Of a stretch of DNA of 64,000 bases, positions 22,893 to 27,266 are shown piece by piece. This DNA is from Candidatus Latescibacterota bacterium. Its GTDB lineage: Bacteria; Latescibacterota; UBA2968. Every line of letters begins with the position of its first letter. Positions within the stretch are counted from its first letter, which is position 1. The notes below the pieces were generated by a model. That model did no database searches, had not been told where the DNA came from, and was given only the letters and a program-made list of their open reading frames with translations. The position numbers and the translations under genes were made by a program. The stretch is taken from positions 1,856,001 to 1,920,000 of the forward strand of contig OZ242010.1 of the NCBI GenBank assembly GCA_965204745.1, given 5' to 3'.

Positions 22893-23633
22893 ATGGATTT
22901 GGTTCGCAAAATTTTGCGCGAAGCCGCCCTGTTTTGCGCGTGTGCCATCTTTGTGGCAGGCGTCGGGTTGATCCTCATGGATCAAATCGTCATGCCGCGC
23001 TACGTGCGCCAAGGCGTGGAAGTAACCGTGCCCGATCTCAAAGGACTGACACCCGAGCAGGCACGGGCGCGGTTGCAGGCAGAGGGCCTGCACATGAAAG
23101 AACGCGAACCGCGATGGGATGCGTCCATGCCCGCGGGGCAAATCGCGTGGCAAAACCCGGCCGCGCTGTCGCACGTCAAGCCCCATCGCACGGTCTATGT
23201 CGCGCCGAGTTTGGGCGAGCGTCTGTACGCCGTGCCGGATCTTCGCAACCGGCCCTTGCGACAGGCGCGGTTGTGGATCGCCCGAGCAGAATTGGCGGTC
23301 GGCGAGGTCATCGAGATGGCCTCGGCAGAGATCGAGGAAGGCAATATCATCGAGCAGACGCCCAAAGCCGGCGAGCAAGTCGTCCACGGGACGCCGGTCG
23401 CGCTCACAGTGAGCACCGGGCCACATCGCGCTTTTGTCGCCATGCCCGTGGTGGAGGAACTCAAATTGGACGACGCGCGGCGTTTGTTGTCCTCCCTCGG
23501 CCTGCGCGCAGACAATATCCGCTACGAATTTAGCACCGCGTACGAACCCGACGTCGTCATTCGCCAAGACCCCGAACCCGACACGCCGATCAAACGCGGG
23601 ACAAGCGTGCAACTTGTCGTGAGTAAGTTGTGA
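22893..23633 (+). CDS. PASTA domain-containing membrane protein (three PASTA repeats)
   Basis: N-terminal TM; VPDLKG, VPDLRN and MPVVEE repeats with Q.P..G motifs. Confidence 0.88.
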   Translation: MDLVRKILREAALFCACAIFVAGVGLILMDQIVMPRYVRQGVEVTVPDLKGLTPEQARARLQAEGLHMKEREPRWDASMPAGQIAWQNPAALSHVKPHRTVYVAPSLGERLYAVPDLRNRPLRQARLWIARAELAVGEVIEMASAEIEEGNIIEQTPKAGEQVVHGTPVALTVSTGPHRAFVAMPVVEELKLDDARRLLSSLGLRADNIRYEFSTAYEPDVVIRQDPEPDTPIKRGTSVQLVVSKL

Positions 23634-23696
23634 AAGGCGTAAAGGCGTAAAGGCGTAAAGGCGTAAAGGCGTAAAGGCGTAAAGGCGTAAAGGCGT
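23633..23696. repeat. (AAAGGCGT)8 perfect octamer tandem repeat
   Basis: Counted directly; starts at the PASTA gene stop. Confidence 0.95.
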
Positions 23697-23729
23697 GAGA
23701 GGTAAGAGGCAAGATACTCTCTTAAAAGG

Positions 23730-24737
23730 TCAAGGGGTTTTCGGGGTGATTCGATAGAATTTTTCGCCCTCAAAATCTTGGTCATGGCGCAACATGCCCC
23801 AGATCGAATGGAGCAACTTTCGCATCACCGCAACGATAGCCTGCAAAGGTTTCTTGCCGCGGGCGATGAGTTGGTCATAGAAGGCTTTGACATGGCCTTC
23901 GTGTCTGATGGCCACCCAGGCAGGCATATAGAGGGCATGGCGGAGGTACTTATTCCCGGTTTTCGAGATGCGTCTTTGTGGATTGGCGGTTCCGGATTGT
24001 TTGGGTTTGGGATCCAGGCCTGCATGTGCGACCCACTGGGGCGGTTGCATCTCCTCTGGCAAAAGGGTCAACTCGGCCAAGAGCCGCAAGGCACTCGTTT
24101 GCGCGATGCCAGGCGTCGAGCAGAGGCGTTGGTAGGCACGCTTGAGGGGCTCATCGTGCAAAACGAGATCGAGGGCTTGGCTTTCCAAGTATGCAATCCG
24201 GCGTTTGAAGTGTCGAATATTCACCTGAATATCGCGTGCGATGAGACGTGTGCTGCGGATGTGGTAGCTCTGCGCGTGGTTGCGGCTCTGTTCGCGGATG
24301 ATCTCCTGCTTGAGTTGGTCAATGCGTCTGGTGAGGGCTTGCAGTTGAAGCCGTTGCTCGCTCGGCGCTTGCCAAGGCACAAAAGGCATGCGCTCGGCAT
24401 AGTCGAGGATCAACAACGCATCCTTCGCATCCGTCTTCGCCCGTTGCATGCAGGCTTGGGCGTACTTGCTCATCGCTTTGGGATTGACGACCATGACCTT
24501 TGTGTGGCGATGCCGATGCAAGGCCAAGGCCACCCCCAAACTGTAAAGCCCGGTCGCTTCGAGGCACACAGAGACCATGTGCCCGCCCTTCGTGAGCCAC
24601 TTCAGCAACCGCTTATGCGCTTGGGGATCATTGGCAAAGGTCGCTTGCATGACAGCTTGTCCGGGTCTGGACAGGGCAACGGACAACGTGCGGGCACTGA
24701 CATCAATGCCGGCAAAAGCGGGGTGAGATTTCGACAT
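23730..24737 (-). CDS. IS110-family DEDD recombinase
   Basis: GIDVS, CLEATG, KTDAKDA, PGI, QSG, RISKTGN.YLR, AVMRKL; AGGAGG RBS. Confidence 0.95.
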   Translation of the reverse strand: MSKSHPAFAGIDVSARTLSVALSRPGQAVMQATFANDPQAHKRLLKWLTKGGHMVSVCLEATGLYSLGVALALHRHRHTKVMVVNPKAMSKYAQACMQRAKTDAKDALLILDYAERMPFVPWQAPSEQRLQLQALTRRIDQLKQEIIREQSRNHAQSYHIRSTRLIARDIQVNIRHFKRRIAYLESQALDLVLHDEPLKRAYQRLCSTPGIAQTSALRLLAELTLLPEEMQPPQWVAHAGLDPKPKQSGTANPQRRISKTGNKYLRHALYMPAWVAIRHEGHVKAFYDQLIARGKKPLQAIVAVMRKLLHSIWGMLRHDQDFEGEKFYRITPKTP

Positions 24738-24809
24738 GGGGGCCTCCTGTGATGAGGGGGTTGTAAGGGATCTGGTGCGCGCTCGGGGTCGCGTCCCGAC
24801 CATTGACGC

Positions 24810-24990
24810 CAAGTCTACCGGTCTTGTATATGCAGCCTCAAGGGGCTTAGATACTCTTCGGCATAGACCCGGCGGTCGGGGGGCCTATCTTACCTACAAG
24901 GTCATCGCCTTCAAGAGGGGCCGGCCTTCCCCGAGCCGGGCATCAAGATGGCTTATCTCGATACGAGGGCGCAACTCCTAATTAACCCTT
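24810..24990 (-). ncRNA. Predicted IS110 bridge RNA (ends approximate)
   Basis: Two stem-enclosed internal loops; guides match the target (24912-24920, 24888-24895) and the donor junction (24849-24857, 24822-24829). Confidence 0.8.
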
Positions 24991-25125
24991 ACTTCCAAGA
25001 TACAAGAGGGGAGAAGGCCAGCCGATTACCCCAAAATGCGAGGAGTGGATCGTAGGGACAGGCACAGGGCCTGTCCAAATCCGCGGTTAGCGAAACAAAT
25101 TAACCCTTTCGAGAAAGGAATGACG

Positions 25126-27096
25126 ATGTCGAAGAAAATCATTGCTTATGGCATGGACGGTTTTATCACGCCGATGATGAAGCATTTTGCCGATGAGGGA
25201 TCGTTGCCGACGTTTAAGCGGTTGATTGACGAGGGCGCGGTCAATGAGACGTTTCCGTCCTTTCCGGTGTGGACGCCCACGAATTGGGCCACCCTCTCCA
25301 CGGGCGCGCACACGGGTACGCACAGCGTCACGCGCTGGCGAGTCGAGGTCGCGCCGGGCGAGCGCGTCAATTCGTTTGACGGTCGCGCCAACAATGCCCA
25401 ACGCATCTGGAACGCCCTTGAGCGCGAGGGCCTGAAAGGCGTGGCCCTGCACTATCCGGCAGCGCATCCGTCCGGCGTGGAAACCGGGTATGTGATCGAC
25501 GGGTTCGGGCATCCTGGGCACGCGAGTACGGATTATGAAATCGCCGCGGCGCAGGCTTATACCACGGCGGCGCAGGGCGAGGAGACCGTGCAGATGGACC
25601 ACGACGGCACAGCCGTGCGCCGCAGGCAGCGCAGCATTGCATCCATCCCCGCGCTCGCGCCGGCCAAGGGCTGGACAAATCTTCCGCAAAGCGCGTTGCC
25701 GCCGCTCGCTTCTGCCATCGAGATCCACGCGCGCTTGGGCGGCGACATCAATCGCTTTTACCTGCTCGCATTTGCCCATACAGGCAATGGATACGACGCG
25801 CTACGGGTCTGCCGATCAAGAGATGGCAACGACCACATCGCGGAGGCCAAGACCGGTTCATGGAGCAATTGGGCCATTGAACCGTTCCACATCGCGGGCC
25901 GCACACAGCGCGCCGCAGTGCGTTTCAAACTCCTCGAACTCGAACCCGATGGCACGCACCTCAAGCTGTACCGCTCGCAGATCACGTACGCGGATGGCTT
26001 CACCTATCCAGACGATTTGGCCGCCGAACTCATCCACCGCTTTGGCCCCTATCAAGAACACGCCTCGATGACGCCCTATACCGCGGGCATGACCGATTTT
26101 GACACCGCGCTTGAAGAATGCGCGTATCAAGGCATGTGGTTTGCCGATGTCGCCAATTACATGCTCCAAGAAAAAGATGCCAATTTCTTCATCTGTCACT
26201 GGCATCTCTACGACTACCTCAACCACATCCACCTCGATGGCGTCGATCCGGTGTGCCCTGCATACCGTGCGGACAAGGCGAACGCGGTCATGGACTTGTT
26301 CCGCAAGGCGTACATCGTCGGGGACGAGGTCCTCAAACGCCTGTGGGATGCCGCGGATGAGACCACCTGTGTCGGCGTGCTGTCCGATCACGGCGCGTCG
26401 CCAGATGTGCGGATTGCCAACATCCGAAAATTCCTGCACGACAAGGGATTCACCGTGCTCAAAGCAGATGCCAGCGACGGGGTTGAACGAGACGAAGTCC
26501 TCGAAAGCGAAATCGACTTTGAAAAAACCCGTGCGTACCTCAAAGACGACAAGGGCTTCGATATATGGATCAACGCCGAACCCGGCCCCGAGTTTGACGC
26601 GATTGAACGCGATCTCCTCCTCGCCCTCCGCACTTGGGTCGATGAAGAGGTCGGGCGCAATGTCATCGCCATTGCCCTGCCCAAGCGCGACGCGTACATG
26701 CTCGGGCAATGGGGCGATCAGTGCGGCGATGTGGTTTTCGCATGGGATCACGGCTATGTCAGCGGGTACTACGGCCAATGGAAGGGCATTGTGGGCGGCG
26801 GGTGCGTGGGCGCGCCCGAGGTTTTCGGCGCGCATCACGGGGGCTTTATCCCCACGCGCAGCGAGATTTCTTCGAGTTTTGGATCGTTTCACTTGGCGGG
26901 CCCGGGCATCAAAAAGGGCTACGAACGCCCGACGGACAAACTCGGGTATATCCACGCGGTCGATGTGGTGCCCACGCTTTGCCACCTCTTCGGCATCGCC
27001 CCACCCGACCAAAGCCAAGGCGCGATTGCCTACGATATCCTGCAAGGTCACGAGATGGTGCGGAAAAGAGCCACAAAAGGCACGAGCGGGGTATAA
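25126..27096 (+). CDS. Alkaline phosphatase superfamily protein (phosphodiesterase/nucleotide pyrophosphatase-like)
   Basis: IIAYGMDG, TPTNWATLSTG, DYLNH, SDHG, GAHHG, DVVPTL. Confidence 0.85.
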   Translation: MSKKIIAYGMDGFITPMMKHFADEGSLPTFKRLIDEGAVNETFPSFPVWTPTNWATLSTGAHTGTHSVTRWRVEVAPGERVNSFDGRANNAQRIWNALEREGLKGVALHYPAAHPSGVETGYVIDGFGHPGHASTDYEIAAAQAYTTAAQGEETVQMDHDGTAVRRRQRSIASIPALAPAKGWTNLPQSALPPLASAIEIHARLGGDINRFYLLAFAHTGNGYDALRVCRSRDGNDHIAEAKTGSWSNWAIEPFHIAGRTQRAAVRFKLLELEPDGTHLKLYRSQITYADGFTYPDDLAAELIHRFGPYQEHASMTPYTAGMTDFDTALEECAYQGMWFADVANYMLQEKDANFFICHWHLYDYLNHIHLDGVDPVCPAYRADKANAVMDLFRKAYIVGDEVLKRLWDAADETTCVGVLSDHGASPDVRIANIRKFLHDKGFTVLKADASDGVERDEVLESEIDFEKTRAYLKDDKGFDIWINAEPGPEFDAIERDLLLALRTWVDEEVGRNVIAIALPKRDAYMLGQWGDQCGDVVFAWDHGYVSGYYGQWKGIVGGGCVGAPEVFGAHHGGFIPTRSEISSSFGSFHLAGPGIKKGYERPTDKLGYIHAVDVVPTLCHLFGIAPPDQSQGAIAYDILQGHEMVRKRATKGTSGV

Positions 27097-27232
27097 GAGA
27101 GCCACAAAAGGCACAAAAGGCACAAAAGGGGTACAACTGGCAACAGCCAGTTCAAAGGCACAAAAGGGGTACAACTGGCGATAGTCCGTTCAAAGGCGGG
27201 CCGTGTGTAGGGGCGATGCCCCCGTGCTCGTC
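27066..27232. repeat. CACAAAAGG / GGGGTACAACTGGC composite repeat plus GTAG-type REP-like palindrome
   Basis: Inverted relative to 6470-6640; GTGTAGGGGCGATGCCCCCGTGCTCG also present (one mismatch) at ~20410-20435. Confidence 0.7.
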
Positions 27233-27266
27233 CAAAGATACAAGGTATAAGGGTGGGGGAAGCTCG

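Follow-up and report, generated by a model that had tools for sequence, protein, structure and literature searches.

Within the window, the whole 64,000-nt stretch of Candidatus Latescibacterota DNA that was analysed, a 1.3-kb segment of the minus strand is, with a probability of about 0.9, a canonical insertion sequence of the IS110 group that moves by bridge-RNA-guided, conservative recombination. The element is of a known type (Durrant 2024; Hiraizumi 2024), and the mechanism itself has been textbook knowledge since 2024. The inserted segment comprises 23712-25004 (1293 bp) and has a CT core at both junctions (25006-25005 and 23713-23712). Read on the minus strand, the left junction is CCCC-TCTTG-TAT (25011-25000) and the right junction is AGAGTA-TCTTG-CCT (23720-23707). 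An earlier note on this DNA had placed the element at 23697-25011, which is correct as to location but not as to the exact ends, since it took in some flanking sequence (4 nt on the left and 15 nt on the right). The guide, loop and junction strings that it quoted are all present on the minus strand. The coordinates of the features are collected in Table 1.

The reading frame encodes a transposase (335 aa from its conserved ATG, or 357 aa from an alternative in-frame ATG upstream) with two domains: (i) an N-terminal, RuvC-like DEDD domain (PF01548, residues 9-154, 1.2e-24); and (ii) a C-terminal Tnp domain (PF02371, residues 203-287, 4.8e-20). The protein scores 213.8 bits against the model NF033542, "IS110 family RNA-guided transposase" (cut-off 140), and its matches in the PDB include ISCro4 (7.6e-40) and IS621 (5.8e-36). 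When aligned to the IS621 chain, residues D12, E60, D103, D106 and S248 fall within GID, EATG, KTDxxDA and SG motifs, and would be equivalent to D11, E60, D102, D105 and S241, which are named as the catalytic residues of IS621 in the available text of its structural report (PMC11208158). The noncoding left end is long (267 nt from core to ATG) and the right end short (18 nt from stop codon to core), and the element is therefore placed in the IS110 group and not in the IS1111 group.

The genome of the window (G000, hereafter the home genome) contains 52 full-length copies among 77 BLAST segments, together with about 20 fragments. The copies are spread across the entire 5.5-Mb chromosome on both strands, and two of them (1121576 and 1122873) stand in tandem. 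The reading frame is intact in 51 of the 52 and truncated in one; 37 copies reach an identity of at least 98.9%, and five show no difference over 1307-1315 nt.

Table 1. Features of the element and its surroundings (window coordinates; minus-strand parts of the loops are given 5′ to 3′).
Feature	Position	Strand	Remarks
Tandem 8-mer array, AAAGGCGT x 8	23633..23696	plus	abuts heptamer units; outside the element
Right flank: right target TGCCT (23711-23707), then units (G)CCTCTT + ACCTCTC	23697..23711	minus	
IS110-group insertion sequence	23712..25006	minus	span common to 52 full-length copies; flanks diverge beyond ~14 nt
Candidate -35 box TTGACC	23728..23733	minus	read by eye in right end; overlaps stop codon
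Transposase / bridge recombinase, 335 aa	23730..24737	minus	conserved ATG, GGAGG upstream
Donor-binding loop	24813..24868	minus	sequence reading and consensus fold
Donor-loop segment GTCTA..CCG	24868-24859	minus	followed by a
Left donor guide AGAGTATCT (as RNA AGAGUAUCU)	24857-24849	minus	followed by hairpin AGCC/GGCT
Donor-loop 3′ side ATACAAGA	24829-24822	minus	followed by c
Right donor guide AUACA	24829-24825	minus	
Donor-loop core complement AG	24824-24823	minus	
Donor-loop candidate handshake position A	24822	minus	
Donor-loop end CGGTAGAC	24820-24813	minus	
Target-binding loop	24882..24926	minus	single and consensus folds; guides match flanks
Target-loop outer stem GGCC/GGCC	24926-24923 and 24885-24882	minus	closing stem
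Left target guide, gg then CCCCTCTTG (as RNA CCCCUCUUG)	24920-24912	minus	
Target-loop inner hairpin AAGG-cgauga-CCUU	24911-24898	minus	
Target-loop 3′ side, gt then AGGTAAGA then ta	24895-24888 (AGGTAAGA)	minus	
Right target guide AGGUA	24895-24891	minus	
Target-loop core complement AG	24890-24889	minus	
Target-loop candidate handshake AU	24888-24887	minus	
Candidate -10 box TATCTT	24997..25002	minus	read by eye, left-end start
Left flank: heptamer units CCTTCTC + CCCTCT	25005..25017	minus	left target CCCCT 25011-25007, core CT 25006-25005

Predicted bridge RNA of the left end

The 267-nt left end folds into two units of stem, internal loop and hairpin, both as a single sequence (z = -3.1) and in a consensus computed from 24 distinct left ends of homologous elements in three genomes. 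The free-RNA fold closes part of the target loop, because the left and right target guides are mutually complementary across the core. In Rfam, no match in 23500-25200 reached the gathering score; the best E-values (0.5-5) were at chance level and belonged to unrelated families, and Rfam 15 may hold no bridge-RNA model. [quoted passage not shown] Here, both loops show guide matches of 9 and 7(+1) nt. In the donor loop, the left guide is identical to the final 9 nt of the right end, and the right guide is the complement of CT+TGTAT in the left end.

The variable columns of the left-end alignment are concentrated at the target-loop guides, with hardly any variation in the donor guides. In 23 of the 24 distinct left ends, the left donor guide is unchanged (the exception, L058 of the home genome, has one change), and the right donor guide shows one fixed difference between genomes. 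The same pattern of variable target guides and conserved donor guides is described by Durrant et al. in the available part of their report (PMC11208160). In the handshake model, as far as the source text at hand describes it, donor positions 6-7 are complementary to the dinucleotide that follows the right target guide on its 3′ side, and cognate handshake pairing is inhibitory in IS621 (PMC11208158). In each of the four genomes, the AU of the target loop is the complement of donor A6-T7. The candidate handshake A of the donor loop could pair with T7 of either the target or its own donor, and its equivalent in G016 is a G that fits C7 of the target.

Target sites and guide covariation

When the flanks are rejoined, they read CCTTCTC CCCTCTT GCCTCTT ACCTCTC, which are the four degenerate plus-strand heptamers that the earlier note had named as the target. 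Its expectation that other copies would be flanked by AGG(C/T)AAGAGGGG is borne out exactly in 37 of the 45 copies with these guides, and the agreement goes well beyond chance. More broadly, 42 of the 52 copies agree with their own guides at all ten non-core positions, with perfect or wobble pairs only, as the proposal that other insertion sites match the guides had foreseen. The notion of an element aimed at a heptamer repeat needs narrowing: the repeats do hold the target, but it is not the repeat in general that is matched, rather a single 12-bp junction, CCCCT-CT-T[A/G]CCT (also written CCCCTCTT[A/G]CCT). As judged from these flanks, the element is targeted to the point where two specific variants of a 7-bp repeat unit meet; such tandem repeats are abundant in the genome, and nearly all of the 52 copies lie inside them.

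Among 709 heptamer-type sites, 37 of the 107 that read CCCC-TCTT-RCCT are occupied, as against 4 of the 602 other NNCC-TCTT-RCCT sites (Fisher p = 6e-29), and sites with A at position 11 are filled in 20 of 25 cases, compared with 17 of 82 for G (p = 1e-7); since related copies are not independent events, the Fisher p-values overstate the evidence. The commonest unit pair, TGCC-TCTT-GCCT, offers 241 free sites and has no insertion. Position 11 is read by a G of the left guide and a U of the right guide, so that the A and G variants each pair with exactly one wobble; to judge from the occupied sites, the A variant, which the right guide matches perfectly, is strongly favoured. Of the 52 copies, 10 have one or more non-wobble mismatches, and one of these 10 is an artefact of scoring that arises from a 1-nt insertion at its junction; four mismatched copies have TACC for CCCC on the left, and two have TCTC-CCGT on the right.

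A shared core of up to 5 bp had also been inferred, and is narrowed when junctions are compared across genomes. The junctions of G018 have only TCT in common, those of G016 only CTT and those of the home genome TCTT(G); the core is therefore CT, which alone is common to all of them, and the further identity around this 2-bp core is coincidental; beyond the core there is no target-site duplication. In the home-genome copy at 1297029, the two junctions disagree at the fourth base. The core in G042 is AT in two of three left junctions and CT in the right junctions.

Guides and sites also change together. A diverged subfamily (89% identity) has the guides CGCC/TGCC and a right guide that reads ACTT; ACTT occurs in the flanks of 4/5 of its copies and in 1/45 for the main guides (p = 1e-4), and CGCC in 3/5 as against 0/45 (p = 5e-4). 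The copy at 1297029 has the guides TCCC/TCTC-ACCT and flanks that match them. Outside the home genome, G018 has the guides CGCCU-CU / GGG+AG and the sites C[G/A]CCT-CT-CCCGT (only 3/5 positions of the right target pair), and G016 has the guides UCC[U/C]C-CU / AGAAA+AG and the sites ..CC-CT-TTTCT. The right guide of G042, ACGUU, stands opposite the right target AACGT in 3/3 copies. In a matrix of guide classes against flank sets, the diagonal mean is 8.8/10 and the off-diagonal mean 6.0, and 0 of 20,000 class permutations were as good. Guide differences separate subfamilies, species within one genus, and a relative that belongs to the same order but to another genus. Subfamilies and relatives with changed guides occupy sites that are changed likewise, which, as far as aligned guides and flanks can tell, is natural retargeting among repeat-unit variants. 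Because the protein family, the RNA architecture and the agreement of guides and flanks (52 copies, four genomes) coincide, the earlier reading of an IS110 element with a two-loop bridge RNA programmed against the heptamers is retained.

Proposed movement, repeats and rival explanations

By analogy with IS621, the element would excise as a circle whose right-end/left-end junction would read AGAGTAT-CT-TGTAT, and this junction may assemble a promoter (TTGACC, an 18-nt spacer and TATCTT) that drives a left-end bridge RNA of ~190 nt. The donor loop would hold the circle junction, with its 5′ side (AGAGUAUCU) paired to the bottom strand and its 3′ side (AUACA+AG) to the top strand; the target loop would hold the chromosomal CCCCT-CT-T[A/G]CCT, with CCCCUCUUG on the bottom strand and AGGUA+AG on the top strand. 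The DEDD/Ser recombinase would then exchange strands at the CT core. The part of the IS621 report at hand describes a split sigma-70 promoter whose -35 box is located in the right end (PMC11208160). A promoter scan of the integrated element returned no promoter-like site in the left end, and it misses the TTGACC/TATCTT candidate because the integrated form separates the two boxes. The candidate pair would come together only in the circular junction, where the spacer would be 18 nt (17 nt in a 96% subfamily, G016, G018 and G042). The only promoter-like site nearby, TGGACA-17-TACGAT, lies in the flank (25077-25049).

Among contigs from four sequencing runs of four studies, none spans the element. 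One contig (X4) appears to connect 23689 with 25014 across 11 other letters, but only ~11 letters follow the joint, which is too little to count. In this contig, 56 nt of the 8-mer array are also skipped, a weak hint of variation in array length. The contig depth, when summed, is much greater across the element than in its flanks, a figure that is not equal to copy number.

The heptamer arrays (606) are lineage-specific and belong to sponge-associated Latescibacterota; the literature search returned nothing relevant on tandem repeats of Latescibacter. It likewise returned no report of an IS110 element with heptamer or tandem-repeat targets; the published supplementary tables of predicted bridge RNAs (Durrant) could list this element or its relatives. 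A Geobacter genome paper treats heptanucleotide repeats, in the part available, as putative regulatory sites and not as IS targets. The genome also contains a REP-like hairpin module, the first 10 nt of which, CT-TGTATCTT, equal the IS core plus the right-donor half-site. A hairpin module with the IS left-end motif co-occurs with the IS110 family in G000, G016 and G018, and heptamer arrays are found in two of these three.

The idea that the 165 hairpin modules are non-autonomous IS110 derivatives found no support: 81 right-end-like GAGTATCT sites lie outside full copies, compared with ~167 expected by chance. Insertion of modules guided by the resident target loop is unsupported, because the left guide is matched by 0/29 module flanks in G016 (29 of 160 matches, plus-strand and non-random) and by 2/11 in G018 (11 of 265 matches). 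A solo left end joined to a module head (2089472 of the home genome) has no IS continuation within 6 kb. It is decidedly doubtful that the co-occurrence of IS lineage, module and array reflects a functional link beyond shared ancestry, in which the recombinase would treat module heads as half-sites resembling the donor, mobilise or recombine modules that lack a transposase and remodel the arrays, and in which guide shifts would be an escape from the saturation of perfect sites.

Site choice could in principle lie with the protein or with the structure of the repeat DNA, the complementarity of the left end being incidental or a captured, non-guiding piece of target. A conserved spacer motif (..GCGCGGTGGCCTTCT) does adjoin many insertions, and in ISPpu10 a target-encoded stem-loop is described, in the available portion of the source, as adding specificity beyond base pairing (10.64898/2026.03.19.712850). 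Against this stands the covariation of guides and flanks in three guide classes here and in three other genomes, in two of which the protein is still 76-84% identical; moreover, the sequence upstream of position 3 is heterogeneous among the 52 copies and a common stem-loop was not seen beside their insertion sites, which leaves this explanation very improbable. The arrays are recombinogenic repeats and two copies stand in tandem, so copies might instead have multiplied as larger units that include their flanks, through duplication or homologous recombination between arrays rather than site-specific transposition, and similar flanks would then be inherited and not selected. The flanks of the 52 copies, however, are unrelated past ~14 nt at places chromosome-wide and on both strands, and their conservation stops where the guides stop; this origin is scarcely to be entertained.

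A true bridge-RNA IS110 family could by now be a fossil in this genome, its perfect sites nearly exhausted and its movement ceased: the A-type sites are mostly filled, about 20 fragments and one truncated frame are present, and no circle or polymorphism was shown in the contigs of the four runs. Yet nearly all frames are intact, the majority of copies are almost identical and 65 wobble-type sites are still free, and extinction of the family is considered rather unlikely.

The value of the locus lies in a natural data set, in which 52 insertions and a census of free and occupied sites in one genome yield a specificity profile without experiment. The off-target profile comprises near-saturation of perfect sites, about five-fold lower use of single-wobble sites and about six apparent half-matched insertions, and retargeting is visible in that each guide set matches a different repeat-unit junction. 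The element may serve as a compact candidate orthologue for bridge-recombinase engineering (5+2+5 target), and the repeat landscape, with its 606 heptamer arrays and >100 hairpin modules, may merit a description of its own.

Comparison with known systems

Among solved structures, the transposase of ISCro4 (PDB 9t56) is the best match (E = 7.6e-40, residues 7-326), a comparison made by protein only. The IS1111 group shares the DEDD recombinase and the RNA-guided design, according to the text available (PMC11208160), but differs in its short left end, long right end and subterminal inverted repeats of 7-17 bp. ISPpu9 and ISPpu10 of Pseudomonas putida also land in multi-copy intergenic repeats (REP or other), and in the accessible parts of these reports their targets are palindromic or contain a stem-loop (PMC12288879; 10.64898/2026.03.19.712850). 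In contrast, the target here is a non-palindromic simple repeat with no conserved stem-loop alongside.

The closest comparison is with IS621 of Escherichia coli, as described in the portions of its two reports at hand (PMC11208160; PMC11208158). Both protein domains are shared, and the catalytic motifs align over residues 8-326. Both elements have a long left end that codes for a two-loop RNA (predicted here) and a CT core, and a candidate for the handshake dinucleotide of IS621 follows the right target guide here; in both, the 5′ sides of the loops read 9 nt of the bottom strand and the 3′ sides 5 nt plus the core of the top strand, and the right end provides the -35 box (here a candidate read by eye). 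On the other hand, IS621 targets REP elements, whereas the target here is a 12-mer inside pyrimidine-rich heptamer tandem repeats. The donor sequences of the two elements are presumably nearly the same. Donor and target share CT alone in IS621 and T-CT-T here. Unlike in IS621, position 11 is covered here by two wobble-capable guide bases, and 52 copies reside in one genome together with a retargeted, diverged subfamily.

The element and its bridge RNA

Features of the window copy and of repeats discussed here, as read from the sequence (window coordinates unless prefixed G000, the genome that holds the window)
Feature	Position	Strand	Remark
IS110 element, 1.3 kb	23712-25006	-	
Left end, 267 nt	left part of element	-	non-coding
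Transposase reading frame, 335 aa	24737-23730	-	GGAGG upstream
Right end, 18 nt	after reading frame	-	
Upstream in-frame ATG, 22 codons	24738-24803	-	lengthens frame to 357 aa
TTGACC, candidate promoter box	23733-23728	-	in right end, overlaps stop codon
TATCTT, candidate promoter box	25002-24997	-	opens left end
8-mer array, AAAGGCGT x 8	23633-23696		perfect; adjoins heptamer units
Hairpin module, example	27224-27244 (G000:1883224-1883244)	-	CTTGTATCTT[T/C]GGGCGAGCACGGGGGCATCGCCCCTAC
19-copy element, two copies	about 20585 and about 30910 (G000:1876585, G000:1886910)		
Tandem pair	G000:1121576-1124187		
Mini-element, about 190 bp	G000:2972654-2972850		no transposase
Composite repeat, examples	G000:3685660, G000:3951297		

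The IS110 identity proposed in the earlier note is upheld by the transposase, which contains both IS110 domains (PF01548 and PF02371; Pfam search), scores 213.8 bits against the NCBIfam model NF033542 'IS110 family RNA-guided transposase' (cut-off 140), and aligns over its full length with the recombinase structures of ISCro4 (E = 7.6e-40) and IS621 (E = 5.8e-36). Residues D12, E60, D103, D106, and S248 fall within the aligned catalytic motifs. An upstream ATG, listed for 34 main-family copies, would carry the frame into the 3' portion of the stretch that encodes the bridge RNA. Because it is absent from the relatives and from the 96% and 89% subfamilies, the 335-aa start is likely the real one.

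Every string quoted in the earlier note was found in place by a sequence check, and its two-loop bridge RNA design reappears in the consensus fold. The left end (275 nt) folds more stably than its shuffles (z = -3.1), and a joint fold of 24 distinct left ends, homologues drawn from three genomes, gives two stem/internal loop/hairpin units, whose stems and hairpins are invariant or covarying (e.g., GC to AU at columns 131:197). The alignment columns that vary are the guide positions of the first (target) loop, while the guides of the second (donor) loop are nearly invariant, a contrast between target-binding and donor-binding loops also reported by Durrant et al. (PMC11208160).

Guide pairing and choice of site

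The genome is a single contig of 5.48 Mb, in which a BLAST search with the element returned 77 segments; 52 are full-length copies, and 51 of these have an intact frame. By identity to the window copy, 37 copies stand at 98.9% or more, 8 at about 96%, 2 at about 95%, and 5 at 88-89%. They are spread all round the chromosome (34 minus strand, 18 plus strand), and their flanks show no relation past about 14 nt. Two arrangements were observed among them and their fragments. In a tandem pair, one heptamer unit lies between a 99.9%-family and a 96%-family copy, and the upstream member used the CCCCTCTTACCT site made beside the older one. The mini-element, inside a heptamer array, consists of a left end that retains the two bridge-RNA loops and runs straight into the final 7 nt of the right end, which leaves the donor arms complete; its variant right target guide is CGGGAGA, reading TCTCCCG, and other fragments carry further guide variants.

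The guide layout follows published bridge-RNA rules (PMC11208160; PMC11208158), with positions numbered after IS621 (1-7 for the left arm, 8-9 for the core, 10-14 for the right arm). The donor of the window copy, formed where right and left ends would meet in a circle, is AGAGTAT-CT-TGTAT, with (CT)CCCCT-CT-T[A/G]CCT as the main target. Bottom-strand positions 3-11 are read by the left target guide, CCCCUCUUG, and top-strand positions 14-8 by the right guide, AGGUA plus AG; the AU that comes next can pair with donor positions 7-6, which fits the expectation of the handshake model (PMC11208158). Among the 45 copies with these main guides, the left flank is CCCC in 41 (one with a 1-nt junction insertion) and TACC in 4, and the right flank is TCTT-ACCT in 24, TCTT-GCCT in 17, TCTC-CCGT in 2, and ACTT and GCCC in 1 each. 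In 42 of all 52 copies, the copy's own guides pair with its flanks across the ten non-core positions with no departure other than wobble. Six main-guide copies (G000:1927353, 5150701, 1599352, 2655483, 5076831, and 1121576) match on one arm only, two with a correct left arm and CCCGT on the right and four with a correct right arm and TACC on the left; they resemble the 'half-match' insertions named in 10.64898/2026.08.31.748434.

Heptamer repeats are abundant in this genome, and abundance alone might be held to account for where the copies lie. Tandem Repeats Finder detects 606 period-7 arrays (30.4 kb in total) in two super-families, CTGAC[A/C/T]A (about 320) and the AAGAGGC/AAGAGGT/GAGAGGT group (about 270). 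Such arrays are contacted by 29 of the 52 copies, and at least one flank exceeds the genome's 99th percentile of period-7 autocorrelation in 38, the window copy itself having only four degenerate units around it. A census of every NNCC-TCTT-RCCT site (668 free, 41 occupied) showed main-guide copies in 37 of 107 CCCC sites vs. 4 of 602 others (Fisher p = 6e-29, a generous value as the copies are related), and no insertion at all in the commonest word, TGCC-TCTT-GCCT, with 241 free sites. At position 11, A pairs perfectly with the right guide (U:A) and by G:T wobble with the left, and 20 of 25 such sites are occupied; G wobbles with the right guide (U:G) and pairs perfectly with the left (G:C), and 17 of 82 are occupied (p = 1e-7, likewise generous given kinship). 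Occupancy exceeds what repeat abundance alone gives, the effect sizes being large despite the kinship of the copies, and the proposed guide-directed aim at a heptamer-repeat site is supported by the preference for guide-matching CCCC sites.

Natural retargeting and the surrounding repeats

Thirteen sequence types can be told apart in the 5' regions of the 52 copies, and where guides differ the flanks differ with them. In the five 88-89% copies the left guide contains CGCC (or TGCC) and the right guide contains AAGUA; their left flanks are CGCC in three, CACC in one (G:T wobble), and TACC in one. CGCC is found in 3/5 of them vs. 0/45 in the main family (p = 5e-4), and a right flank of ACTT in 4/5 vs. 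1/45 (p = 1e-4). Copy 1297029, with guides UCCCUCUCG and AGGUGAGA, lies at TCCC-TCT..TCTC-ACCT. Relatives at 76-84% protein identity occur in two complete Latescibacterota MAG chromosomes, G016 and G018, and a more distant one in G042, of the same order. In G018 (18 copies examined), guides UCGCCUCU and GGG+AG accompany junctions C[G/A]CC-TCT-TGTAT and AGAGTA-TCT-CCCGT, within heptamer arrays at another unit junction than in G000. In G016 (7 copies), UCC[U/C]CCUUG and AGAAA+AG accompany ..CC-CT-TGTAT and AGAGTAT-CT-TTTCT, outside heptamer arrays. In G042, the right guide ACGUU faces the right target AACGT in 3/3 copies. When nine guide classes were set against nine flank sets, the diagonal averaged 8.8 of 10 matched positions and the off-diagonal 6.0; permuting the classes 20,000 times never gave a diagonal as high.

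A three-unit pattern of the AAGAGGC-group super-family occurs 551 times in G000, 252 times in G018, and at most 6 times per genome in the other 59 relatives searched, among them 18 congeners and G016, where it is absent. Heptamer-directed guides are thus found exactly in G000 and G018, the genomes having the arrays; the guides of G016, the closer relative, aim at non-heptamer sites. Several sequencing runs containing the window sequence are labelled sponge metagenome, and one, X4, has contigs nearly identical to the element's flanks. An X4 contig skips 56 nt of the 8-mer array (side 26), a weak hint that array length differs between strains. A composite intergenic repeat, [CTGACNA]n followed by a conserved 26-nt spacer (CTTGAGAGGAACAGCGCGGTGGCCTTCT) and [CCCCTCT/TGCCTCT ...]n, has 13 matches at up to 5 substitutions in G000, and the CCCC unit that the element needs is often the first past the spacer. 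GAACTGGCTATCGCCAGTTGTACCCC and GCCTTTTGT repeats are further recurring modules.

The first 10 nt of a REP-like hairpin module, CT-TGTATCTT, equal the core plus the right-donor half-site at the start of the element's left end. G000 has 165 copies at up to 3 substitutions; by pattern, it has 114, G016 160, and G018 265, and within the genus this IS lineage is carried by these three genomes. The remaining 18 congeners have 0-3 modules each, and a search of 40 more distant relatives gave none. The modules as simple passengers of the element are unsupported, since a search of G000 found no right-end partner and none of 29 module flanks compared in G016 (of 160 modules, not a random sample) matched the resident left guide; the co-occurrence may reflect shared ancestry of the three genomes. 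A further repeated element, present in 19 near-identical genome copies, contains ..TTCA-CTTGTAT-GTCTATATTTGTCAGCAG.., but this motif is internal and no junction, because the upstream sequence is identical between copies.

Core, circle junction, and comparison with IS621

The earlier note allowed a core of up to 5 bp because donor and target of the window copy share TCTTG. The sharing is real, but the 5-bp core does not survive junction comparison: G018 excludes position 10 and G016 position 7 (target C, donor T in both), and copy 1297029 has the donor's T at position 10 of its left junction and the target's C at the right. The core is CT, the canonical one of the IS110 group (PMC11208160; PMC11208158). 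At the G042 loci L068, L074, and L078, it reads AT at 2/3 left and CT at 3/3 right junctions, and the left guide also has AU at the core position, as would be expected if the top-strand cut follows the core and the target's core stays at the left junction.

In a circle, TTGACC and TATCTT would lie 18 nt apart as a candidate promoter (17 nt in the 96% subfamily, G016, G018, and G042); a promoter scan of the integrated element gave no such site. The arrangement is consistent with the split promoter known from IS621 (PMC11208160).

No literature that connects IS110 with heptamer or tandem-repeat targets was found, supplementary tables of large surveys aside. The element has every defining IS110-group feature on which its sequence gives a clear answer, and it is predicted to work like IS621, to whose family it is assigned. 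Within that family, it stands out by aiming at one particular junction between simple-repeat units, by the double wobble at position 11, by its copy number, and by visible retargeting.
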